Assembly (NCBI GenBank): GCA_963775425.1
Contig: CAVZJB010000005.1
Span: forward strand, 32,001 to 96,000
Direction: 5' to 3'
From: an uncultured delta proteobacterium
Lineage (GTDB): Bacteria; Myxococcota; UBA727; VGSZ01
Length of the DNA stretch: 64,000 nt
In this document: positions 30,225 through 43,658 of the stretch, piece after piece
How the letters are laid out: every line of letters starts with the position of its first letter
Position numbering within the stretch: position 1 is the first letter of the stretch
Position numbers and translations under genes: made by a program
Notes under the pieces: model-generated
What the model saw: the letters and a program-made list of their open reading frames with translations, nothing else
Told to the model about the DNA's origin: nothing
Database searches by the model: none

Positions 30225-30983
30225 CTAGAGGTCGATGCGCTCGACCGGGGCCGGATCGCGGTGGGCCTTGACGCCCGTGAGCTTCTCGATGGCGCGCTCC
30301 ATCCCCGACCAGGCGCCGACCTTGGACATGAAGCCGTTCACCCAGCCCGTGGTGATGCAGTAGTGCGACTCATACGGGAAGGTGTGGTGGATCTGGTGGT
30401 GATCGCGCGGGAGGATCACGTGCTTGTCCTGCAGCCACGTGACCCACGCCGGCAGCTCCGCGGTGTGCGCCCACTTGTGGAACTGGTTGGTGGCGAAGGT
30501 GAAGATGGACGCGAACGTGATGAGCGAGACGAAGAAGAGGACGCCGGCGTTTTCGAAGTCGAGGGGCAGGAAGCAGAAGCACGCCAGGGGGATGACCGTG
30601 GCGAGGCAGTTGTTGCCGTTGGTCTCGACGAAGTCGTGGCGCGTGATGTCCTTGGGATCCACGTGGTGCATGCGGAAGGGCTTGACGAAGTTGGGCCCGA
30701 GCAGCGGCGTCTTGTCGGTGCCGTAGCGGTCGAAGCCCCAGTGGACCATGCCGCTGCCGAAGTCCGCGAGGACGTAGCCGGCGAGGAGCGCGATGGTGAC
30801 GGTGGCCGCGAGCCAGTGGCCGCGTGAGGTCTCGCCGACGGTGTAGGCGTCGCTGACGACGAGGATGAACCGGTAGACCAGCCAGCTCACCATGCTGTAC
30901 GCGGACGCAATGCCGAACATCTCCAGCATCCGGTGCCAGATGCTGTAGCCCTGCTGCTCCTCGACCTCGACACGCTCCGACAT
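30225..30983 (-). CDS. carF: CarF/TMEM189 (PEDS1)-family plasmanylethanolamine desaturase
   Basis: ADFGSGMVHWGFD, FRMHHVDP, HDFVETNG, TNQFHKWAH, HHQIHH, YCITTGW His boxes. Confidence 0.88.
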   Translation of the reverse strand: MSERVEVEEQQGYSIWHRMLEMFGIASAYSMVSWLVYRFILVVSDAYTVGETSRGHWLAATVTIALLAGYVLADFGSGMVHWGFDRYGTDKTPLLGPNFVKPFRMHHVDPKDITRHDFVETNGNNCLATVIPLACFCFLPLDFENAGVLFFVSLITFASIFTFATNQFHKWAHTAELPAWVTWLQDKHVILPRDHHQIHHTFPYESHYCITTGWVNGFMSKVGAWSGMERAIEKLTGVKAHRDPAPVERIDL

Positions 30984-31116
30984 GCTGCGCTCCCGCCCCG
31001 CTCCAACCCCCGCGGTACCGAAAGTACGCGCGGGGGCAGCCGACGGATCAGACGACATTGCCCATCCGAAGGCAATCCATCGTCGTCGATGTCTGTCACG
31101 CACGTGTCACAGCGAC

Positions 31117-33951: not shown

Positions 33952-34068
33952 CCGGGGCCGTCTACCCGATGCCCCGAGGCCGCATCGCCCGGTCGCAACT
34001 GACATTCGCTGCCGAGGGTGACCGGGGTCGTGTTGGACGCGGCGGGGCCCACGGTTACACTTGTCGCC

Positions 34069-35667
34069 ATGCGCTCGACAGCCGCCCTCGCGTCCCTGCT
34101 CGTGCCCCTCGCCGCCGGACCGGCGTGCAATTGCGGGCTCGAGGTGCTCGCGACGCCGCTGCCGCACATGATCGTCCAGCCCAAGGCGGTGGAGATCAAC
34201 ACCGCGCCGGTGGCGCAGGACACGACCGTCGTCATCCAGGTCAGCGACCCGACCATCGTGAACCTCGAGCAGGTGCACGCCGAGCTGCAGGAGCCTGTCG
34301 ACCCCTCGTTCCGGCTCGTCCCGCCCGTCATCGACGAGGTGCTCGCGGGGCAGACCGGCGAGATCACCGTCGTCGTCCGGCCGTCCACCGCCTCGGAGCT
34401 CCACGCCGTGTTGGTGTTGACGGCCGAGGACGACGCCAAGCCCAACCGCGTCGAGGTACCGTTCATCATCCACGCCGTGGACGTCGGCCTCCCCGACATC
34501 TGCGACTACCCCGAGCAGATCGCGTTCGGCGGCATCGGGCAGAGCGACATCGGCCGTGACGAGGTCACCATGGACAACTGTGGCGTCCGCGACCTCATCA
34601 TCGACTCCGTCCGCCAGTGCAAGGACCCCGTCGGCGACGACCCGGTCGACGAAGACGGCTGCGGCCCCGACGACCCCGCCTTCCACGTGCAACAGGTGCC
34701 GCAGCCGCCGCAGCCCGAGACGGCCATCGGCCCCGGCGAGCGCGGCGGCATCTCCCTGCCCATCACGTTCAGCCCCGGCGACCTCGTCGAGCACGACACC
34801 AACGTGATGATCAAGTCGAACGACCCCGACGAAAACCCGCTGATCATCCCCGTGAGCGGCACCGGCGCGGCGTGTCCCACGGCGTGCATCGAAGCCGTCG
34901 ACGGCATCGACGGCATCCAGCCCTTCGACACCGTCCGCCTCGACGGCGGCTGCTCGACGGTCCCCGAAGGCGCCAACACGTCCATCGAGGCCTACCAGTG
35001 GACGCTGTCGCAGCAGCCCCTCGGCTCGACGACGACGCTGTCGTCGCTCACCGACTCGCGCGTGGAGCTCCCGGTCGACCTCGCGGGCAACTACTGCGTG
35101 AACCTCACCGTCACCGACACCGCCGGCGCGCACAGTTGCGCTCCGGCTTCGCAGTGCTTCCAGGCCGTGCCCACCGAGGACCTCCACATCCAGCTCGTCT
35201 GGGACAGCCCCACCGCGGACCTCGACCTCCACCTCGTCGGCGACGGCGGCGACCCCTTCAAGCATGAGAGCGACTGCTACTTCTCGAACCGCCACCCCAC
35301 GCCCGACGATTGCCCGGCGAACGCTTCGCGCTGCTCGTGGGTGGACAACGCCGACCAGAACCCCAACCTCGACCACGACGACAACGACGGCTACGGCCCG
35401 GAGAACACCAACATCGTGCACCCGGCCCCGGGCTCGCACTGGCGCATCTTCGTGCATTACTGGAACGCGCAGACCGACGGCGATCCGCGGGTGACGGCCA
35501 CCGTGCGCGTCTTCGTCTACGGCCAACAGGTGCTCGAGCTGCAGCAGGTGTTCGAGAACGACCAGACCCTGTGGCAGGCGGTAGACATCGTCTGGCCCGA
35601 GGTGGAAGGTGATCCGGCGAGAGTCTCGCAGATTGGAAATGTCACCCCCTTCCCCCGGCCGTTCTGA
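34069..35667 (+). CDS. Lipoprotein with Ig-like (choice-of-anchor D/PKD-like) domains and YfaP-like C-terminus
   Basis: GPACNC lipobox; SNDPDE; LDG..S..YQW; LVWD..ADLDLHL..DDNDGYGPEN. Confidence 0.72.
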   Translation: MRSTAALASLLVPLAAGPACNCGLEVLATPLPHMIVQPKAVEINTAPVAQDTTVVIQVSDPTIVNLEQVHAELQEPVDPSFRLVPPVIDEVLAGQTGEITVVVRPSTASELHAVLVLTAEDDAKPNRVEVPFIIHAVDVGLPDICDYPEQIAFGGIGQSDIGRDEVTMDNCGVRDLIIDSVRQCKDPVGDDPVDEDGCGPDDPAFHVQQVPQPPQPETAIGPGERGGISLPITFSPGDLVEHDTNVMIKSNDPDENPLIIPVSGTGAACPTACIEAVDGIDGIQPFDTVRLDGGCSTVPEGANTSIEAYQWTLSQQPLGSTTTLSSLTDSRVELPVDLAGNYCVNLTVTDTAGAHSCAPASQCFQAVPTEDLHIQLVWDSPTADLDLHLVGDGGDPFKHESDCYFSNRHPTPDDCPANASRCSWVDNADQNPNLDHDDNDGYGPENTNIVHPAPGSHWRIFVHYWNAQTDGDPRVTATVRVFVYGQQVLELQQVFENDQTLWQAVDIVWPEVEGDPARVSQIGNVTPFPRPF

Positions 35668-35680
35668 AGTCCCACGAAGC

Positions 35681-37993
35681 ATGTCCCGTCAGGCCGCCCT
35701 CGTCCTCGCGCTCGCCGCCGTCTCCGTCGGCTCCTGCCGGTGCGGCCCCCTGCTCCCCGACCCGCCCAAGCAGTGCACGCCCGACGGCGCCGGCTGCCTG
35801 TCCGACGAGATCTGCGTCGACTTCCAATGCGTGCCGCGGCCCAAGTGCGCCACCGACGCGGACTGCGACAGCCCCGCGTTTCAGTGCGTGTTGCCCGCGC
35901 AGGTCTGTCAGCTCCGCGAGGGCTTCGGCCTCGAGTGCAGCGCGGCGGCCCCGTGCGTGCCCGGCAAGTTCTGCGCGCTCGGCATCTGCCGCGACTTCAA
36001 CGAGGACAACGTCTGCAGCTTCGACACCGACTGTCGCCCCGGCCAGCGTTGCGACCGCATCGACGTGCAGTGCATCCCGGACGGCGATTGCCGCCTCACC
36101 GACGCGTTCCCCGAGCTCGCGTGCTTCGAGCAGGGCGGCGAGCAGTGCGACGCGCTGACGGGCCGCTGCGCGCAACCGTGCGGCGATCCGCCCGTGTGCA
36201 CCAGCGACGGCGATTGCCCGAGCGCCGGTGAGCACTGCAACGGGAGCTGCCTGTGCGTGCAGTGCATCTCCAACGACGACTGCGGACCGGGCCTGCACTG
36301 CGACACGCGTTCGGGTGACTGCCACAGCGACAACGAGTGCTTCAGCGACAGCGACTGCGAGCCGCCGCTCGTGTGCGGCGCGTCGGCGCAATGCGAAGTG
36401 GCGCCGCCGCCGTGCTTCAGCGACTTCGACTGCAACTTCGGCCAGACCTGCGACGTGGGCACCAACCAGTGTCAGTTCATCGGCGGCGGCGCGTGCGCGG
36501 ACGATTGTTTCGATCCCGCGTTCGGCGCAGGCAACAACACGCCGGCGACCGCGAAGGCGCTCACGGTCAACTTCGGCGAGAACCCGGTCGTCGACGACCT
36601 CGTGCTCTGCCTCAACAACGACGACGTCTACTCCGTCGCGCTCACCGCCGGCGACCTCCTCATCGCGCACGTCGACGGCACGGACCCGCTGGCCGGCGCC
36701 ACCATGACGCTCCTTGACGCCACCGGCGAAAACACCCTCGACTTCGCCGAGACGCCGCCGCGCGGGGACGGCACCATCGCGTTCGTCGCGCAGTCCGACG
36801 AGACCGTCTACCTGCGCCTCTCGGCGCTCCAGAGCACAAGACAGGACGGCGGCGGCACGCCGTACACGCTCCAGCTCACGCGCGAAAACGGCGCGGTCTG
36901 TCAGCCCGACGCGTTCGAGAGCCCGCCCAACGACACGCTCGTGAGCGCCACGCCGCCCGAGCAGGTGCCCGACGGCGTCGTCCTCCTCGGCACGGTGTGC
37001 CCCGGCGACGTCGACCTCTATCGCGTCGACGTGGCGTCGGGCGAGGGGCTGTCGGCGAACCTGGCGTTCGACGGCGCGGCCACGGACCTCGACCTCGCGT
37101 TCCTCGACGAGCAAGGCACGCTCGTCGTGCAGGACGGCGGCGTGTCGCAGCCGGAGACGCTGCGCCACCGCTTCCCGTTCGCGGGCAGCGTCTACGTGCG
37201 GGTGCGCGGCTTCGGCAGCGACATCGGCAGCTACAACCTCACGGTGAACCACGAGCCCCCGTTCGTCTGCGTCCCCGACGCCGCCGAGCCCGCCGACAAC
37301 GACCCGTCGACGGCGCCCACGCTCCCGCTCAACCAGGCGCTCGGCCCCGAGGACCACACCATGTGCAGCGGCGACGTGGACACCGTGGTCACGCCGCTCG
37401 AGGACTTCGAGCGCATGATCGTGAGCGCGCTGTACGACGACGCCGACGTGGAGCTCGCCATCGACATCGTCGACGCGGCGGACGGCACCACGGTGCTCGC
37501 CACCTCGCCGCCGGCCACGGGCGGCGCCGCCGTGAGCTACGACGCGCGCGCCAACGAGACCGTCTTCGTCCGCGTCGGCGGCGTCGGCGGCGCCGTCGGG
37601 CCGTACCAGCTCCACATCGAAAAAGAGAACCAGCTCGACTGCGCGCCCGACGCGCTCGAGCCCAACAACACCGTCGCGCAGGCCAAGCCGCTGCCGGCCC
37701 CGGGCGAGCTGTTGAGCATGTGCGGCACGGACGCCGACTTCTTCTCCATCGACGGCAACGCGGGCAAGAAGCTCGTCGTCGACGCGTCGTTCCGCCAGGC
37801 CGAGGGCGACATCGACCTCCAGCTCATCGGGCTCGACGGCTCCCAGATCCTCGCCACCGCCGACGGCACCAGCGACGGCGAGCACCTCGAGGTCACGCTG
37901 CCCCTCGACGGCACCTACACCCTGCGCGTGTTCTCCCTCTCCGGCGACACCAGGTCGCGGTACACGCTGACCGTCTCCGAGGTCTCCCCGTAG
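35681..37993 (+). CDS. Cys-rich lipoprotein with multiple PPC (pre-peptidase C-terminal-like) domains
   Basis: GSCRC lipobox; repeated C..D.DC..G..C; D..EPNN and DLDL motifs in four repeats. Confidence 0.75.
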   Translation: MSRQAALVLALAAVSVGSCRCGPLLPDPPKQCTPDGAGCLSDEICVDFQCVPRPKCATDADCDSPAFQCVLPAQVCQLREGFGLECSAAAPCVPGKFCALGICRDFNEDNVCSFDTDCRPGQRCDRIDVQCIPDGDCRLTDAFPELACFEQGGEQCDALTGRCAQPCGDPPVCTSDGDCPSAGEHCNGSCLCVQCISNDDCGPGLHCDTRSGDCHSDNECFSDSDCEPPLVCGASAQCEVAPPPCFSDFDCNFGQTCDVGTNQCQFIGGGACADDCFDPAFGAGNNTPATAKALTVNFGENPVVDDLVLCLNNDDVYSVALTAGDLLIAHVDGTDPLAGATMTLLDATGENTLDFAETPPRGDGTIAFVAQSDETVYLRLSALQSTRQDGGGTPYTLQLTRENGAVCQPDAFESPPNDTLVSATPPEQVPDGVVLLGTVCPGDVDLYRVDVASGEGLSANLAFDGAATDLDLAFLDEQGTLVVQDGGVSQPETLRHRFPFAGSVYVRVRGFGSDIGSYNLTVNHEPPFVCVPDAAEPADNDPSTAPTLPLNQALGPEDHTMCSGDVDTVVTPLEDFERMIVSALYDDADVELAIDIVDAADGTTVLATSPPATGGAAVSYDARANETVFVRVGGVGGAVGPYQLHIEKENQLDCAPDALEPNNTVAQAKPLPAPGELLSMCGTDADFFSIDGNAGKKLVVDASFRQAEGDIDLQLIGLDGSQILATADGTSDGEHLEVTLPLDGTYTLRVFSLSGDTRSRYTLTVSEVSP

Positions 37994-38081
37994 GGCGGGG
38001 CCTTGTCCCCGGCCTCCGCCCCGCGCCGTCGAGATCCGCGCCAAAAGGCCGTCCCGCGCCGTAGACTGACGGGGGTCTCCT

Positions 38082-39395
38082 ATGAAGATCAAGACCGACG
38101 TCGACGCCGCCCTGCGCAAGGCCAGGCTTCCGCAGGAGACCGTCAAGCTCGAGAGCCCGGCCCCTTTGCAGGTGCCCGGCAAGACCGGGCCCGGCGTCTC
38201 CGCGCTCGAGCCCAAGGAGGTCGGCGCCGATCCCGCCTGGGTCGCCGCCCACGCCGCCGGCGAGGCGGTCGACGGCGCGCCCAGGAAGACCGCGCTCAGC
38301 GTCCGCTTCCCCGAGATGTCGGCCGAGCTCACGTTCAACGACAACCTCGCCGTCGCCATCGCCGGCGCCGACGGCCACCTCGGCAGCGACGCGCCCAAGC
38401 TCACGCCGGCCATCGCCCAGGCGCTCTTCGAGGTCACCAAGGAGGGCGGCATCTCGTCGCGCGAGCTCAAGGACGCGGCGCGCATCGCCGACGCGCTGAC
38501 GGCCCGCGGCGACGCCAACGCGCCCCTGCTCCGGGAGCTGACGGCAAAGATCCGCGACGCGTACGCCGACCAGACCTTCCTCACCAAGCTGATCGCGCGC
38601 GCCGGCGACATCGGCAAGAGAGACAAGGTCCCGAGCCTCACCTCCGCGGCCGTCGAGGCCACGCAGCCCGGCAAGGTCGGCGAGTGGGTCGGCGTTCACC
38701 TCTCGCGCGCGCAGGACGCCGCGCCGGTGGACGGCCCCGCGCCCAACGCGGCCACGGGGAAGTACGTGATGTGCCCCGTGCTCGGCTCGCTCATCCAGGA
38801 AGGCTCGCTCAAGCAGGACGACAAGGGGAACATCAGCCTCGCCGAGTTCAACGACGTCATGATCAAGCGGCTCGGCATCACGCCCGAGCGCGCGGCGCTC
38901 ACGGTGAGCACCACGTTCATCGGTCAGCACGCGTCGGACGCGCCGCACGTGGCGGCCGGCAAGCTGAACATCAACCACCTGAAGGGCAGCATCCTCGACC
39001 ACCAGCACCACGGGGACACCGGCATCCTCGCGGACGGCGAGTTCCACGAGGACAAGTTCCAGGCGTTGCTCGCGCACAGCTCCGACGGAAAGTCGCTGTG
39101 CATCGCCGACTTCGCGCACGCCATCAACGATCAGCTCGCGCGCGACGACGGCTTCGTCACGAGGGCGAAGGGAACGAGCGAAGACGTCTTCGAGATGGCG
39201 GCGCTCATCAACACCTTCGGCTACGTCGACGACAAGGGCGAGCGCCGCATCGACTTCGGCACGCTGCGAGACCTCTACCAGAACCGCCGGCTGCCGCCGC
39301 AGTCCGAGCTGATGGCGAGGAAGTCCACGGGCCTCATCGAGCACACCGAGTCCATGGCCAAGATGGGCGTCGAGATGATCAAGGACGAGCGATGA
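38082..39395 (+). CDS. Putative heme-thiolate peroxidase/peroxygenase-like protein with N-terminal extension
   Basis: MCPVLGSL..EG...GNIS; LNINHL..ILDHQHHGDTG; F..LLAHSSDGKSL..DFA; FEMAALINTFG...LRDLYQNRRLP follows the Peroxidase_2 motif order. Confidence 0.55.
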   Translation: MKIKTDVDAALRKARLPQETVKLESPAPLQVPGKTGPGVSALEPKEVGADPAWVAAHAAGEAVDGAPRKTALSVRFPEMSAELTFNDNLAVAIAGADGHLGSDAPKLTPAIAQALFEVTKEGGISSRELKDAARIADALTARGDANAPLLRELTAKIRDAYADQTFLTKLIARAGDIGKRDKVPSLTSAAVEATQPGKVGEWVGVHLSRAQDAAPVDGPAPNAATGKYVMCPVLGSLIQEGSLKQDDKGNISLAEFNDVMIKRLGITPERAALTVSTTFIGQHASDAPHVAAGKLNINHLKGSILDHQHHGDTGILADGEFHEDKFQALLAHSSDGKSLCIADFAHAINDQLARDDGFVTRAKGTSEDVFEMAALINTFGYVDDKGERRIDFGTLRDLYQNRRLPPQSELMARKSTGLIEHTESMAKMGVEMIKDER

Positions 39396-39697
39396 GCGAA
39401 CAGGAGATCGACACCGCCAAGGTGAGCGCGCTCGTCAACGAGGCGCTCCTGTCGTGCACGGCCGACGACGGGCGCTTGAAGATGCTCGAGCCCGGCTTCC
39501 TCGCCATCGGCAAGCGGGTGCACGAGTCCGACGACAAGAGGCTCTGGGCCGCGGCGCTCATCGCGCTGTCCACGCGCCTCAAGGACGTCGAGGGCGCCAA
39601 GGACGCGGCGGAGCGCACGGCGGTCCTCGCGGCCATCGCCCTGGGCGACGTCGAGCTGAACGGGATGCTCTGCAAACGCCTCTACGGTCGCCGCTGA
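39392..39697 (+). CDS. Small helical hypothetical protein coupled to the upstream gene
   Basis: ATGA overlap; 101 aa MSEQEIDTAKVSALVNEALL...; typical codon usage. Confidence 0.7.
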   Translation: MSEQEIDTAKVSALVNEALLSCTADDGRLKMLEPGFLAIGKRVHESDDKRLWAAALIALSTRLKDVEGAKDAAERTAVLAAIALGDVELNGMLCKRLYGRR

Positions 39698-39701
39698 GCG
39701 G

Positions 39702-40412
39702 CTACATCCAATACTCGTTGCCGTCGGTGCAGCGGACAATCCAGCGGCCGTAGCAGTCGCCGTCCTCGTAGTAGCCGTCGTCGACGTACTCGTAGCCGCA
39801 GTCGTCGGGGCCGTAGCAGACGTAGTCGTAGTAGGAGGTGTCGACCCAGCAATCGGGATCGCAGTAGGTGTCGCGCCAGATCCACCAGCAGACGTCGTCC
39901 TCGGCCTCCGTCGGCGTCTGCGGCACCGCGGAGGGCATCGGCGTCGCCGTGCCGAGGAAGCACGCGCACTCGAAGGCGGACCAGGTGCCGCCGTCGGCCT
40001 CGCACTGCGACGGGCCCGCGCCGCCGGGGTCGCATTGGCAGGTGTCGTCGACGCAGGCGAAGCCGGGCCGCTCGGTGTCGGTGGCCGCGCCGCAGTCGCT
40101 CGCCACGGCGCACGCCGCTTGCGCGTCGGCGGGGATGCCCGGGTCGCCGTCGCTGACGACGCCGTCGCCGTCGGGGTCGTCGGCGGCGGGGGGGCCGGCG
40201 TCGTCGGGCGCGGGTTGCTGCGGATGAGCGCCGTCCGGGTCGGTGCCGTCGGTCGGGTTGGCGGCGGCGCTGCCGTCGTCGGTGCCGTGGTCGGCGGGGG
40301 GAGCGCTCGCTTGCGTCTGCGGGCCCTGGGGAGGCGGCGGCGGTTGACCGGGGTCGACCGCGTTCACGCAGGCCGTGAGCGACAGGAACAGGGCGGCGAC
40401 GACGACCCTCAC
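39702..40412 (-). CDS. Lipoprotein with Cys-rich and Tyr/Asp/Trp-rich C-terminus
   Basis: LSLTAC lipobox, Pro/Asp linker, CWWIWRDTYC...YYDYVCYG...YYEDGDCYG. Confidence 0.65.
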   Translation of the reverse strand: MRVVVAALFLSLTACVNAVDPGQPPPPPQGPQTQASAPPADHGTDDGSAAANPTDGTDPDGAHPQQPAPDDAGPPAADDPDGDGVVSDGDPGIPADAQAACAVASDCGAATDTERPGFACVDDTCQCDPGGAGPSQCEADGGTWSAFECACFLGTATPMPSAVPQTPTEAEDDVCWWIWRDTYCDPDCWVDTSYYDYVCYGPDDCGYEYVDDGYYEDGDCYGRWIVRCTDGNEYWM

Positions 40413-40513
40413 GCCCTGTGTATCGGCCCCCGGTAGCGAAAGGTGCGATACGTACAACGCACTGATCTATCGACACTTTTCTGGATCTGCGCCGTCGACC
40501 GCGCTCCGAGGCG

Positions 40514-40623
40514 CTCCGGTCGCTGCGTCACGCGCGGCCGCTCCCTCCGGTCGCTGCGTCACGCGCGGCCGCTCCCTCCGGTCGCTGGGTCACGCGCGGC
40601 CGCTCCCTCCGGTCGCTGGGTCA
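40514..40623. repeat. 31-bp tandem repeat (3.5 copies), REP-like
   Basis: CTCCGGTCGCTG(C/G)GTCACGCGCGGCCGCTCC at 40514, 40545, 40576 and partial at 40607; no spacers. Confidence 0.9.
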
Positions 40624-42624
40624 AGCGCTGTGTCGGCGGCGCACGAAGACGAGGAGCACGACGAGGGGGAACGCGCCCGCGCCGGTGGCCGCGCAGCCGC
40701 CGGCGGCCTGGTAGCCCTGTTGCGCCTGCTGCACCGCGTTCGGGTCCTGGGCGCCGCCACCGCTCGAGGGGTCCCCGCCGGCTCCGGTGCCGGCTCCGGT
40801 GCCGTCGCCGGCGCCCGTCCCGCCCCCCGTCCCGGCTCCGGTGCCGTCGCCGGCGCCCGTCCCGCCCCCCGTCCCGGCTCCGGTGCCGTCGCCCGGACCC
40901 GTCCCGCCGCCGGTGCCGCCGCCGGTGCCGCCACCCGTGCCGCCGCCGGTGCCGTCGCCGGGGCCGGTGCCGCCGGTGCCGCCGGTGCCGGTGCCGCCGC
41001 CGCTGAAGTCCGTGCCGCCGCCATCGCCGGTCCCCCCGCCGTTCGAGCCCTCGACGCAGCTCGCGCCGGACGCGGCGACGACGAAGCCGGTGTCGCAGGT
41101 GCAGGCGCTGCCGTCGGCGAGGAGGTGCGCGTTCACGGGGCAGAAGCCGCCCACGATCGGGAGGGTCCCCCCGCCGCTCGTGCCCGGATCGCTCGGATCG
41201 GTGGTGCCGTCCGGCGGCGGATTGGTCGGGTTGGTGGGATCGGTCGTCGTCGACGGCGGGTGCGGGGGCTCCGTGAGGGCGCCCGTCGTCGTCAGCGCCT
41301 TCGACACGGCGTCGGCGGCGTCGAGCGACGCGCGGTCCCCGCAGCCGGTGCAGCCGTAGGGCGAGCTCGTGAGGATGGTCTTCACCTGCGCGGGCGAGAG
41401 CAGCGGGTTGAGCGCCTGCATGAGCGACACGACGCCGGCGACGTGCGGCGCCGCCATCGACGTGCCCTCGAGGAACTTGTAGCCGTCGGTGGTCGCGCCG
41501 TCGATGGAGAGGATCTCACCGTACTCGTCGTAGCCCGCGGTGCTGTCGCCGCCCGGCGCCACGATGTTCACGCGTGCGTCGAAGCTTGAATACGGCGCGA
41601 GCGCGTAGGTCGGGCCATGCGCCGCCACCGCGAGGACGTTCGGGCAGTTGGCGGGAGCGCCGGTGGCGCCGCCGGGATCGTTGCCGCCGGCGGCGACGAC
41701 GACGACGCCGGAGCGCACGATCTCGTTGTAGATGTCCGTCTCGAACGACGTGCACGCGCCCGCCGCGCCGAGGCTCAGGTTGATGACGCTGACGTGGTCG
41801 GCGCCGATGTCCGGCACGCCGTCGACGTGAAAGCCCGCGAGCCACGCGGCGCCCTCGGCGATGTCGACGATGGAGCCGTCGCCGCCGGAGAGCGCGCGCA
41901 CCGTCACCAGCCGCGCGTCCCAGTTCACGCCGACGACGCCGATGCTGTTGTCCGCCTGCGCCACCATGGTGCCGGCGACGTGCGCGCCGTGGAATTCGCC
42001 GTCGGGGCCGTCGTCGCGGTAGTCGAAGTCGCGCCCGTCGCCGTCGTTGGCGAGGGCCGGGTCGCTGATGAAGTCGAAGCCCTCGAGGTCAGCGGGCGTG
42101 AGGTCCTGGTGCAGGACGAGGCCGGAGTCGACCATGCCGACGCGCTGGTCGGGCAGGCCCACGGTGCTGTCCCACGCCTGCTCGGCGCTGATGTCGGCCA
42201 TGCCCCAGAGGTACTGCCAGCCCTCGTCGTTGGGCACGCGCTGCTCGAACTCGTGGCCGATGGCGTCGGCGGCGACCACGTTCGCGCCCTTGCGCAGGCG
42301 CGCGACCGCGCGCTCGGTGCCGGCGACGGTGCTCGTGCTCACGTCGACGATGAGCCAGCCGAAGAGGCTCCTGCGCTCGAGGCGGACGCCGAGCGCGGCC
42401 AGCGCCGCCTTCTCGTCGGTGCCGGGCTTGAGCTTGAGGAGCGCGTGGCCGGGCTCGGCGCCGGGAGGCGGCAGCGGCCGGGCGCCCTTGCGCGCCGACA
42501 CGGGCGCGGCGTGCGCGGGGACGGCCGCGAGGGCGAGCGCACACCCGGCCACGGCGCAAAACGCGCTCGCCACGGTGGGGCGGAGGCGGGCGAGGGGGGC
42601 GGCGCGGTTGTTCATCCCGTTCAT
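40621..42624 (-). CDS. S8 subtilisin-like serine peptidase with Gly/Thr linker and MYXO-CTERM-like sorting signal
   Basis: MVDSG, HGAHVAG, AAGGND, GTSMAAPHVAG; C-terminal GGCAATG, TM helix, RRR. Confidence 0.9.
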   Translation of the reverse strand: MNGMNNRAAPLARLRPTVASAFCAVAGCALALAAVPAHAAPVSARKGARPLPPPGAEPGHALLKLKPGTDEKAALAALGVRLERRSLFGWLIVDVSTSTVAGTERAVARLRKGANVVAADAIGHEFEQRVPNDEGWQYLWGMADISAEQAWDSTVGLPDQRVGMVDSGLVLHQDLTPADLEGFDFISDPALANDGDGRDFDYRDDGPDGEFHGAHVAGTMVAQADNSIGVVGVNWDARLVTVRALSGGDGSIVDIAEGAAWLAGFHVDGVPDIGADHVSVINLSLGAAGACTSFETDIYNEIVRSGVVVVAAGGNDPGGATGAPANCPNVLAVAAHGPTYALAPYSSFDARVNIVAPGGDSTAGYDEYGEILSIDGATTDGYKFLEGTSMAAPHVAGVVSLMQALNPLLSPAQVKTILTSSPYGCTGCGDRASLDAADAVSKALTTTGALTEPPHPPSTTTDPTNPTNPPPDGTTDPSDPGTSGGGTLPIVGGFCPVNAHLLADGSACTCDTGFVVAASGASCVEGSNGGGTGDGGGTDFSGGGTGTGGTGGTGPGDGTGGGTGGGTGGGTGGGTGPGDGTGAGTGGGTGAGDGTGAGTGGGTGAGDGTGAGTGAGGDPSSGGGAQDPNAVQQAQQGYQAAGGCAATGAGAFPLVVLLVFVRRRHSA

Positions 42625-42780
42625 TGTCGGCAGCGACGGCGCCTTGGCCCTCGCTGCGGCGTCGGTGCTGCGGCGGATGCTCCATGTAGGCGCACCTCGA
42701 TCGCGCTTGATCATGGTCACGGGGACGTCCGTCGACGTCGGCAAAGGTCGTACCTCGCGGTACGTGGTAGCCTGCGCGCG

Positions 42781-43658
<878 letters not shown>

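Follow-up and report, generated by a model that had tools for sequence, protein, structure and literature searches.

The locus at positions 38082..39697 of the window (the whole 64,000-nucleotide stretch of DNA analysed here) raises two connected questions: whether its larger gene encodes a bacterial relative of the heme-thiolate peroxidases, i.e., chloroperoxidase (CPO) and the unspecific peroxygenases (UPOs), as proposed in an earlier note made from the letters of the sequence, and what the long N-terminal part of this protein and the small gene coupled to it may be for. The features of the locus are the following.

38082..39395, + strand: gene of a 437-aa protein in three parts, namely a leader, an X domain and a UPO-like domain; stop codon included
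38082..38312, + strand: disordered N-terminal leader, aa 1–77 (pLDDT < 60 for aa 1–70)
38313..38696, + strand: helical domain X, aa ~78–205, of no known family (from pLDDT, alignment and recurrence in other proteins)
38697..38753, + strand: low-confidence linker, aa 206–224 (pLDDT < 50, poorly conserved among close relatives)
38754..39392, + strand: predicted heme-thiolate domain of the short-UPO/chloroperoxidase fold, aa 225–437 (from Foldseek, VIA-align and the family profile)
38772..38777, + strand: Cys231-Pro232, predicted proximal heme ligand motif (codons TGC CCC)
38997..39017, + strand: D306-H307-Q-H-H-G-D312, putative counterpart of the fungal E-H-D region (from conservation and alignment to UPO chains)
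39192..39194, + strand: Glu371, predicted distal acid-base catalyst (from conservation and alignment)
39392..39697, + strand: 101-aa partner gene, Ala/Leu-rich, of no known family (ATGA overlap, conserved relatives)

The locus and its UPO-like domain

The 437-aa and 101-aa reading frames are real, conserved genes. On translation, the former (38082..39395, + strand) is free of stops and includes all stretches quoted earlier, with the codon of the proposed ligand Cys, TGC, at 38772–38774, where the earlier note had placed it. The start ATG of the smaller frame overlaps the TGA stop of the larger one (gcgATGAgcg), which bears out the ATGA coupling of the two genes. Both frames are of coding-type composition (GC3 = 0.97 for the 437-aa frame), and conserved homologs were found for both; the 437-aa protein has 12 relatives at E ≤ 8e-55, and those with full N-termini share its start. 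A scan of positions 37700–40000 for promoter and terminator consensus sequences returned 0 sites of either kind. The sequencing runs listed with the locus comprise no RNA run, the sole entry being one soil-metagenome DNA run (share 0.12).

The resemblance of the C-terminal part to heme-thiolate peroxidases is real and beyond chance, though weak for the single sequence. Of the two Pfam families considered earlier, Peroxidase_2 (PF01328) matches the 437-aa protein with E 0.059 and 14.3 bits, i.e., below the curated gathering cut-off of 26.9 bits but along nearly the whole profile (positions 14–180 of 186), and Caleosin (PF05042) gives no match at E ≤ 10. A phmmer search of the PDB sequences returned two “unspecific peroxygenase” chains, one at E 2.3e-4 and the other at 1e-3; the CP motifs coincide in these alignments. 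The profile built from 85 relatives reached UPO chains with E from 3.5e-9 to 6.4e-5 and brought the CP, H, E and LP motifs into register; the chains at 3.5e-9, 4e-9 and 2.7e-8 are aligned over almost the full length. Among 78 distant relatives scanned, 31 match Peroxidase_2 at E ≤ 0.01 and 7 lie above the Pfam cut-off; hence, the link to this family is transitive, running through these 7 of the 78 relatives and through the family profile with its E of 3.5e-9 to solved UPOs.

Structure prediction and comparison also recovered the UPO/CPO fold, on a predicted model. The AlphaFold2 model of the 437-aa protein, with pLDDT > 90 across most of aa 225–437, displays a chloroperoxidase-like all-helical fold in this part. 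Superposition of its residues 220–437 on residues 5–221 of the short UPO 8iag_B with VIA-align gave Z 20.6 and an rmsd of 2.7 Å (203 of 223 residues aligned); all 26 entries at Z ≥ 15 were UPO/CPO, the next entry following at Z 5.2. Likewise, in the Foldseek search, all 19 matches at E ≤ 0.001 were UPO/CPO, with a probability of 1.00 and target-normalised TM-scores of 0.63–0.74 to short UPOs.

The residues expected at the active site are conserved. Cys231 is kept in 83/85 relatives and Pro232 in 81/85; the stretch M-Cys231-Pro232 coincides with the CP of UPO chains in the alignments made with phmmer and with the family profile, and a helix begins in the model at residue 232, right after Cys231. 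On the distal side, Glu371 (80/85 relatives) falls on the Glu in the “GES” stretch of UPO chains, and the “ldH” of the 437-aa protein on their “LEH”. Glu371 and His307 match the UPO Glu and the E-H-D His in the alignment and form a putative acid-base pair, the charge-stabilising role beside the catalytic Glu being predicted for His307. H307 is kept in 81/85 relatives and D312 in 72/85. At the place of the Mg2+ site of fungal UPOs (E-H-D...S) stands D306-H307-Q308, with D306 in only 45/85 relatives. The Cys and Glu proposed earlier are thus conserved among homologs and, together with the family profile and the fold, support the assignment of aa ~220–437 as a predicted bacterial member of the heme-thiolate peroxidase/UPO superfamily.

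The earlier view of this family as mainly eukaryotic has been outdated by the bacterial UPOs (“BUPOs”), described and characterised in 2025–26 (Lopez-Tavera et al., Biochemistry 2026, PMC13394420; preprint 10.1101/2025.11.27.690923). According to the former paper, the purified BUPOs bind heme, with a CO-Soret band at 441–443 nm, and show H2O2-dependent peroxygenase activity; one of them, AgeBUPO, comes from the myxobacterium Archangium gephyra and has a long low-confidence N-terminal region. Its authors describe the physiological roles of BUPOs as unknown and their H2O2 rates as low (PMC13394420). Judged on the predicted model and the alignment, the domain considered here combines the features by which BUPOs are defined, i.e., structural homology to family I UPOs (TM > 0.5), the conserved CP-Cys and the Glu/His(Lys/Arg) pair. 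Therefore, the core idea of a bacterial UPO was right but is no longer new in the light of the published BUPOs (PMC13394420), and a bacterial UPO-like gene is by itself now ordinary.

It is highly improbable that the domain has lost catalysis and acts in sensing or in structure as a protein of EF-hand-like descent that binds heme or Ca. Traces of such ancestry include weak matches of EF-hand_6 to 4/85 relatives, plastin and centrin EF-hands at E 0.03–0.5, and the position of EF-hand proteins below UPOs in the fold lists (Z 3.5–4.3). A narrow profile of 13 sequences run against the PDB found no UPO, its sole match being a plastin EF-hand at E 0.89. However, the full Cys/His/Glu catalytic set is conserved, and every EF-hand score is insignificant. 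Read against the consensus, the two EF-like loops of the 437-aa protein lack the canonical Ca ligands.

Strict adjacency of the X domain and partner genes

The N-terminal ~225 aa had been taken for an extension without a Sec signal, perhaps a secretion or effector leader. The first part of this description stands, since no Sec-type hydrophobic segment occurs in the first 75 aa (the maximum Kyte–Doolittle 15-residue mean being 0.61); the second does not, because aa ~78–200 form a folded helical domain, designated X, that is also present in GMC oxidoreductases. In the full-length AlphaFold2 model X is folded with pLDDT 76–96; modelled alone, it reached moderate confidence (pLDDT 68.8). Its sequence is 32–50% identical to segments from 8 other loci, and T84, N88, G123, S125, N146, D163 and Q164 are invariant in the resulting 9-row alignment. 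X has no match in Pfam and no usable match in the ESM Atlas, its profile found nothing better than E 0.05 among PDB sequences, and the isolated model compared with 48,161 chains retrieved only generic helical bundles (best Z 6.9). The leader is of a type common to the proteins combining X with a UPO-like domain (X-UPO) and to those combining it with a GMC oxidoreductase (GMC-X): they begin with “M-x-I/L-x-K” and continue, for 60–130 aa, as a T/P/A/Q-rich disordered stretch; comparison of the leaders of both groups revealed no consistent amphipathic helix.

Apart from X-UPO proteins, X is found as the C-terminal part of GMC oxidoreductases and, in fusion proteins, as the piece joining a GMC to a catalase-related domain: a profile census yielded 13 proteins, i.e., 6 with GMC and catalase domains, 4 with GMC only, 2 X-UPO and 1 odd case. 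In a sample of 401 genomes of the phylum, which are related and hence do not count as independent observations, each of the 8 X matches at E ≤ 1e-10 is followed immediately, within its own contig, by a partner match, and each of the 9 partner matches at E ≤ 1e-10 lies beside an X gene. The window's own genome harbors a GMC-X gene (encoding P0146) with identical ATGA coupling to its partner and with a partner paralog on each side, two in all. Search for the locus itself gave 135 pattern matches in genome contigs, with 0 confirmed, and 401 pattern matches in metagenome contigs, with 3 loci confirmed. The co-occurrence of the 101-aa gene with homologs of the 437-aa protein, on which the earlier note relied for a check, is observed in the metagenome X-UPO loci L009 and L010; it fails in the metagenome locus L011, where a close UPO homolog without X has no partner gene within 5 kb. 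Along with the invariable adjacency to X (8/8), the latter case implies that the partner gene tracks X and not the peroxygenase domain.

The partner has 8 relatives at E ≤ 5e-19; it has no match in Pfam, NCBIfam, PADLOC or the ESM Atlas, and its profile against the PDB gave nothing better than E 0.05. The PADLOC defence scan of the 437-aa protein, the partner, P0146 and P0117 likewise returned no match. X and the partner are unrelated to each other (hhalign probability 0.1%). Judging from these sequence comparisons, X and its partner appear to constitute a portable two-gene accessory module, apparently a new one.

Possible roles of the module

Taken as a whole, the locus probably represents a BUPO-type heme-thiolate enzyme combined with a portable X/partner association module. 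In such an enzyme, aa 225–437 would most likely bind heme b via Cys231, and Glu371, aided by His307, would most likely split the peroxide (H2O2 or an organic hydroperoxide) to give compound I, which would then oxygenate or oxidise a substrate. The module is not peroxygenase-specific, being present also on GMC flavoproteins, some of them fused via X to a catalase-related heme domain. X may bind the 101-aa protein, the most likely role of the module being protein–protein association, which could organise, localise or pair peroxide-producing with peroxide-consuming enzymes. Still, gene adjacency and co-inheritance of X and the partner are no proof of physical binding, and the complex prediction for X with the partner (score 0.25 vs. 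a mark of 0.32), run without controls, gives no evidence either way. Of the five genomes besides the window's that encode GMC-X, 4 lack an X-linked heme enzyme, and the fifth (G314) has a GMC-X-catalase fusion; hence, a general pairing of oxidase and peroxygenase via X is not the whole story.

As to the co-substrate, the heme domain could be dependent on lipid hydroperoxides, i.e., a caleosin-like peroxygenase or a hydroperoxide isomerase/lyase of oxylipin or lipid metabolism; this is a genuine, if lesser, possibility, which concerns the co-substrate only and is compatible with every interpretation of the module. In one relative (P0067, E 3e-9 to the 437-aa protein), a UPO-like domain is fused to a lipoxygenase (E 3.7e-63 to PDB 5ek8), and the GMC-X-catalase fusions have a C-terminal domain similar to PDB 3e4w (E 3.1e-11), a small catalase-related protein reacting with organic hydroperoxides. 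The Caleosin profile cross-matches 3/85 relatives at E ≤ 1, one of them above the cut-off (P0049, 28.5 bits vs. 27); two of the Caleosin-matching relatives, P0049 and P0051, still have the CP/H/E set. These matches speak for a lipid-hydroperoxide-dependent enzyme, while the lack of any Caleosin signal in the 437-aa protein itself speaks against it; the bridge between UPOs and caleosins suggested earlier is thus a thin one. Moreover, the vicinity of the gene contains no lipoxygenase, the nearest lipid gene, encoding a desaturase-domain protein (30225–31103), being 7 kb off behind unrelated genes. In the published matches listed for caleosin and UPO/chloroperoxidase, caleosin is not mentioned, and among those listed for caleosin and heme-thiolate no title or opening of an abstract deals with homology. 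The BUPO authors propose organic peroxides as the preferred co-substrates because of the low H2O2 rates (PMC13394420), but the characterised BUPOs do use H2O2.

A more tentative, and rather doubtful, proposal gives the module a definite task: X and its ~100-aa partner would be an undescribed Myxococcota docking module for self-sufficient peroxide-shuttling systems, in which the GMC enzyme makes H2O2 and the heme enzyme spends it, either covalently (GMC-X-catalase-related fusions) or non-covalently (GMC-X and X-UPO of the window's genome bridged by X and the partners), possibly in or on a microcompartment. If true, it would provide the first physiological context for bacterial UPOs, namely an in-built, channelled peroxide supply. 

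The leader, X and partner may also be seen as a targeting or export device, with the small protein as a chaperone or adaptor delivering oxidative enzymes by a non-Sec route to the outside, to vesicles or to a bacterial microcompartment (BMC), although we regard this as unlikely. A helical domain whose neighbouring gene encodes a ~100-aa protein resembles secretion-chaperone pairs by analogy, and the leader type is shared by X-UPO and GMC-X proteins; at the same time, the leader has no consistent amphipathic helix and no secretion-system gene adjoins either the X-UPO or the GMC-X locus. In the window's genome, 5 bp separate the end of the GMC-X operon from a tandem-BMC shell gene, and 4/5 BMC-domain matches of this genome lie within 7 kb of the operon. 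BMC shell genes occur in 5/5 other GMC-X genomes as well, but there they are on different contigs from GMC-X. The 6/6 co-occurrence is weak, since BMC genes are common (159/401 genomes of the phylum sample), and 10/10 family-level relatives have BMC genes but 0/10 have X or the partner. The BMC shell locus as an explanation of the module was downgraded because the adjacency was found in 1/6 genomes. The absence of a Sec-like signal in the 437-aa protein also speaks for a special route, given that fungal UPOs, like many of the BUPO clades, are exported proteins (PMC13394420).

The idea of the earlier note that the small protein could be an inhibitor or immunity factor may be recast as a regulator that docks either on X or on the catalytic domain, keeping reactive peroxide-handling enzymes inactive until needed. 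The tight translational coupling, implying roughly stoichiometric co-production, and the two partner paralogs flanking the GMC-X gene of the window's genome would suit such a regulator. It is, however, quite unlikely: the partner goes with catalytic domains of three different chemistries (flavin oxidase, catalase-related and UPO), tracks X rather than any active site and has no match among the known families of antitoxins, immunity proteins or defence proteins.

The reading as a BUPO-type enzyme with an association module links, through a common domain and partner gene, this enzyme type to peroxide-forming GMC oxidases and catalase-related domains. The X/partner link is therefore a testable lead on how BUPO-type enzymes may get and handle peroxide in the cell. 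The supply of H2O2 limits the use of UPOs in biocatalysis, and the X/partner module, if it is a pairing device, would be usable for oxidase-peroxygenase cascades; if it is a targeting device, it would suggest that myxobacteria possess a new route for export or to a compartment.

Comparison with known systems

The predicted domain has the same whole-domain fold as fungal family I (“short”) UPOs, e.g., HspUPO (7o1r) and DcaUPO (8iag), with Z 19.9–20.6, and as chloroperoxidase (1cpo, Z 17.2). The order of motifs is alike, i.e., CP, (E/D)H, the catalytic E and LP near the C-terminus, but the identity to fungal UPOs is 13–20%, their P-C-P is replaced with M-C-P and E-H-D with D-H-Q. Unlike fungal UPOs, the bacterial protein has no signal peptide and possesses, in addition, the leader and the X domain.

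Caleosin, the plant and fungal peroxygenase PXG, is likewise a helical heme protein, whose oxygenation reactions depend on hydroperoxides. Its heme is His-ligated, and it has a canonical EF-hand that binds Ca as well as an anchor for lipid droplets. By contrast, the protein described here has a predicted Cys ligand, no hydrophobic anchor and EF-hand-like loops with insignificant matches only.

The closest published counterparts are BUPOs, especially clade III with AgeBUPO, which share with the present domain the (here predicted) short-UPO fold, CP-Cys, the Glu/His pair and low identity to fungal UPOs (PMC13394420). The published BUPOs also lack the fungal Mg site, at the place of which the present domain has D-H-Q, and contain no Mg. 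Like the 437-aa protein, AgeBUPO is of myxobacterial origin and has a long, poorly predicted N-terminal region. One relative, P0042, whose identity to the UPO domain is 35%, clusters with Archangium and Archangiaceae MAG proteins; the nearest genomic relatives of the 437-aa protein are ≤ 36% identical to it. The BUPO paper works with a set of 188 sequences and distinguishes clades I–VI. Clades I–V are, however, described as single-domain (PMC13394420), whereas here a defined X domain and a coupled partner are present; that paper mentions no folded N-terminal domain, GMC link or partner gene, and the word “operon” occurs in it 0 times.

Literature on GMC oxidoreductase-catalase fusions in Myxococcota was not found, and the GMC-X fusions are unnamed in print. 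These GMC-X and GMC-X-catalase-related fusions of Myxococcota, e.g., P0146 of the window's genome and P0140 (“GMC oxidoreductase [Myxococcaceae bacterium]”), have X in common with the 437-aa protein at 32–41% identity; like it, they are followed by a partner gene and start with a leader of this type. They differ from it in their catalytic domains (flavin oxidase/dehydrogenase and catalase-related) and in the placement of X, which is C-terminal or internal and not N-terminal. Still, in the triple fusions X directly precedes, on the N-terminal side, a heme domain using peroxide, as it does in X-UPO.

The gene pair and its peroxygenase-type domain

P0001, a 437-aa protein, is encoded together with its 101-aa partner P0002 in the following surroundings, where the neighbouring genes give no hint to the function of P0001:

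30225-31103, minus strand, lipid-desaturase-domain gene
34018-35667, neighbour gene, PKD/Ig-domain protein
35609-37993, plus strand, flanking gene, Cys-rich 794-aa protein with a PPC domain at its end
38082..39395, plus strand, P0001 gene (ORF, 437 aa)
39392..39697, plus strand, P0002 gene (ORF, 101 aa)
39702-40457, convergent, neighbour gene, Cys-rich 251-aa protein
40621-43017, minus strand, flanking gene, S8 protease (subtilase) with a long C-terminal Gly/Thr-rich repeat region

As the earlier note had claimed, the two ORFs overlap in ATGA, and the codon of the proximal Cys was placed correctly (Cys231, 38772-38774). The window has a G+C content of ~70%, with a GC3 of 0.97 in the P0001 ORF; the start codon of the latter is supported, since the homologs open with the same “M-x-I/L-x-K” pattern.

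Taken alone, P0001 resembles known peroxygenases weakly. The profile search proposed in the note returned a Peroxidase_2 match below the Pfam cut-off (E 0.059, 14.3 bits, cut-off 26.9) and none for Caleosin; the NCBIfam scan gave no match, and in the PDB two chains of “unspecific peroxygenase” (UPO) were found at E 2.3e-4 and 1e-3. This weak single-sequence match is bridged by the relatives of P0001. A word-indexed search yielded 12 of them, all unnamed or “hypothetical” metagenome proteins, and an exhaustive search of representatives yielded 94 clusters at E <=1e-3. Among the 78 clusters scanned with Pfam (11 fragments were omitted, as were 5 sequences present in the narrow alignment, A1), 31 matched Peroxidase_2 at E <=0.01 and 7 exceeded the curated cut-off. 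The broad alignment A2 comprises 85 sequences: P0001, the 12 close ones from the word-indexed search, and the 72 that were left of the 78 after one fragment and five long fusions had been excluded. Its conserved positions include C231 (83/85), P232 (81/85), H307 (81/85), E371 (80/85) and P405 (79/85), and its profile matched UPOs of known structure at E 3.5e-9, 4e-9 and 2.7e-8 (the third being HspUPO, 7o1r). The alignments span nearly full UPO chains, and four motifs line up in them: CP, (E/D)H, the catalytic E and LP. Where fungal UPOs have E-H-D as the Mg site, P0001 has D-H-Q.

The AlphaFold2 model of P0001 (mean pLDDT 80.8, above 90 for most of 225-437) was compared with known folds, and the superposition called for in the note turned out in favour of the UPO/chloroperoxidase (CPO) fold. 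All 19 Foldseek matches at E <=0.001 were UPO/CPO, with a probability of 1.00 and a target-normalised TM-score of 0.63-0.74 against short UPOs. The same was true of all 26 VIA-align entries at Z 15.2-20.6, followed by an entry at Z 5.2; in the best of them, residues 220-437 superposed on 5-221 of 8iag_B (Z 20.6, rmsd 2.7 A, 203 residues aligned). By profile alignments, conservation and structure comparisons, P0001 thus has the UPO/CPO fold together with a proximal Cys and a distal pair of Glu and His. Its C-terminal domain is very probably a heme-thiolate homolog of the UPO fold, and the protein is likely, as a prediction, to be an active peroxide-using enzyme.

Related domains also occur in other contexts. 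P0067 (849 aa, a representative protein) joins a UPO-like domain (aa 13-193) to a lipoxygenase (E 3.7e-63 to PDB 5ek8), suggesting use of fatty-acid hydroperoxides by some members of the family. P0024 (552 aa) and P0062 (714 aa) represent two more fusions, one with DUF5995 (E 2e-54) and the other with a DJ-1/PfpI match that is weak and, at 23.7 bits, does not reach the cut-off. A C-terminal extension in three close homologs, P0010, P0013 and P0014 (A1 columns ~545-556), harbors a second “CP(F/H)(L/M)xK” motif, resembling the heme-ligand CP motif and absent in P0001.

Domain X and the small partner gene

The earlier note regarded the ~225 N-terminal residues of P0001 as an extension without a Sec signal, perhaps a leader. 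The lack of a Sec signal holds, as aa 1-75 have no hydrophobic core (maximum 15-residue hydropathy 0.61). The leader reading fits residues 1-64, disordered in the model like 206-224, but not ~70-205, which form a folded helical domain (pLDDT 76-96), hereafter X (aa ~78-205). Searches of Pfam, the PDB and the ESM Atlas matched X to no known family. In the representative search, the X stretch alone matched three long proteins at ~690-850 (P0070, P0087, P0096), all GMC oxidoreductases by Pfam; in two, a match to the catalase family follows at the C-terminus. The genome of the window itself has a second copy of X, located at the C-terminal end of another GMC oxidoreductase (P0112, or P0146 at 1029 aa). 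Nine aligned rows from independent loci are 32-50% identical to P0001, with conserved polar positions. A profile census of longer proteins, scoring the 7,999 candidates sharing most words and hence not exhaustive, gave 13 matches: six GMC plus catalase, four GMC only, two X-UPO and one “release factor 2”. The latter (P0149, 395 aa, “peptide chain release factor 2”) starts with X (hhalign probability 99.6% over residues 1-111) and is probably a chimera created by gene calling or assembly; its contig is 2.7 kb long. In one GMC-X-catalase triple fusion, the GMC part is closest to alcohol and choline oxidases, and the last 290 aa match PDB 3e4w (E 3.1e-11).

The partner matched no known family in Pfam, NCBIfam, PADLOC, the PDB and the ESM Atlas, and a search for homology between X and the partner found none. 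Eight relatives of P0002 were found (60-107 aa); two of these and two X-UPO homologs come from the same sources with longest contigs of the same length (6657 and 9402), which is consistent with, but no proof of, common contigs. The co-occurrence check suggested in the note came out positive: by tblastn, the partner lies directly 3' of X-UPO in two metagenome loci (L009, L010), and L011, which encodes a 58% identical UPO domain lacking X, has none within 5 kb. In the genome of the window, the gene downstream of GMC-X encodes a partner of 44% identity and likewise overlaps in ATGA; a third paralog is located just upstream of GMC-X. Across a sample of 401 genomes, which are mutually related so that the counts are not independent, X was found at 8 places at E <=1e-10 (plus 2 weak) and the partner at 9 (plus 4 weak). 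Each of the eight strong X places has a strong partner downstream on the same contig, 12 to ~70 nt from the end of the X ORF or, in the genome of the window, overlapping it; the remaining strong partner place is that of the paralog upstream of GMC-X. Judged from these placements, the small gene belongs to X.

In L009 (6005-7093), the partner frame is stop-free to 362 aa, and Pfam gave no match for the additional 260 aa. A frameshift, an assembly error or a genuine fused form may underlie this.

Possible roles of X and its partner

X and its partner occur jointly, linked to redox domains of three kinds, each of them peroxide-making or peroxide-using, and X stands directly N-terminal to the heme domain in the GMC-X-catalase triple fusions and likewise in X-UPO. 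Hence, the two may constitute a protein–protein association module organising or pairing such enzymes; binding of X to the partner is a somewhat favoured assumption. Pairing is suggested by a Rosetta-stone argument, since GMC, X and the heme domain form one chain in some genomes vs. separate GMC-X and X-UPO proteins here. Coupling of an oxidase to the peroxygenase by the module seems rather unlikely. Simple pairing is opposed by the other GMC-X genomes: four of the five possess no X-linked heme enzyme, and only three of the five have any UPO-like gene.

The main rival explanation is that X and the partner, with the leader, serve targeting. In X-UPO and GMC-X proteins alike, the sequence opens in a similar way and continues as a long, disordered leader rich in T/P/A/Q; a Sec signal is absent from both. 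In the genome of the window, the GMC-X operon adjoins a microcompartment shell locus, which comprises a tandem-BMC and a BMC-P gene, an aldehyde dehydrogenase and two BMC-H-type matches. However, the shell genes of the other five GMC-X genomes sit on other contigs, and 159 of the 401 sampled genomes (a count including one flagged unpublished, G195) carry such genes.

The operon (G000:C16:876000-890000; L012, L046) runs in the order partner paralog, GMC-X, partner and a 276-aa ORF, ending 5 bp from the convergent tandem-BMC gene. The other shell-locus genes, a pyrophosphatase and an AA12-like gene lie within 7 kb, and four of the five BMC-domain matches of the genome fall in this region.

Relation to caleosins and to published bacterial peroxygenases

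The caleosin likeness proposed in the earlier note did not hold for P0001 itself. Caleosin was matched by two of the 78 relatives in the Pfam scan (one above cut-off) and by three of the 85 in the profile comparison, P0049 being above cut-off; P0049 and P0051 retain the CP, H and E residues of the UPO type. Since weak EF-hand signals also recur across profile and fold searches of the family, a remote link is possible, though not established. In the fold lists, EF-hand proteins come after UPOs (Z 3.5-4.3). Two helix-loop-helix stretches of P0001 (aa 238-258 and 378-400) look like EF-hand loops, with weak matches to plastin, centrin and EF-hand entries (E 0.03-0.9). Such features may reflect a common origin of the UPO fold and the EF-hand and caleosin proteins; our literature search on caleosin with UPO/heme-thiolate found no paper linking both families.

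The UPO domain was matched at E <=1e-5 in 38 of the 401 genomes of the phylum sample, none more than 36% identical, and in 5 of 41 nearer genomes. The names among P0001 relatives include “Myxococcota bacterium” and “Archangium sp.”, which points to Myxococcota as the probable origin of the window; the close X-UPO subfamily (41-72% identity) comes so far only from metagenome data.

The proposal of a bacterial UPO/CPO-like protein stands by fold, Cys and Glu, but bacterial UPOs (BUPOs) as such are already in print (“Discovery of Bacterial Unspecific Peroxygenases”, PMC13394420; preprint 10.1101/2025.11.07.687166), with a second preprint on the subject (10.1101/2025.11.27.690923). PMC13394420 describes a set of 188 proteins from bacteria, divided into six clades. 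They adopt the short-UPO fold, conserve a PCP-Cys and a Glu/His pair, and lack a Mg site. Three enzymes were purified, displaying a CO-Soret band at 441-443 nm and H2O2-dependent peroxygenase activity; the physiological roles are stated there as unknown. One of the three, AgeBUPO (clade III) from the myxobacterium Archangium gephyra, has a long N-terminal region of low confidence. The P0001 gene is a new member of this recently described family. BUPO clades I-V are termed single-domain in that account, whereas P0001 combines leader, X and UPO domain with a coupled partner, a variant architecture not described there.
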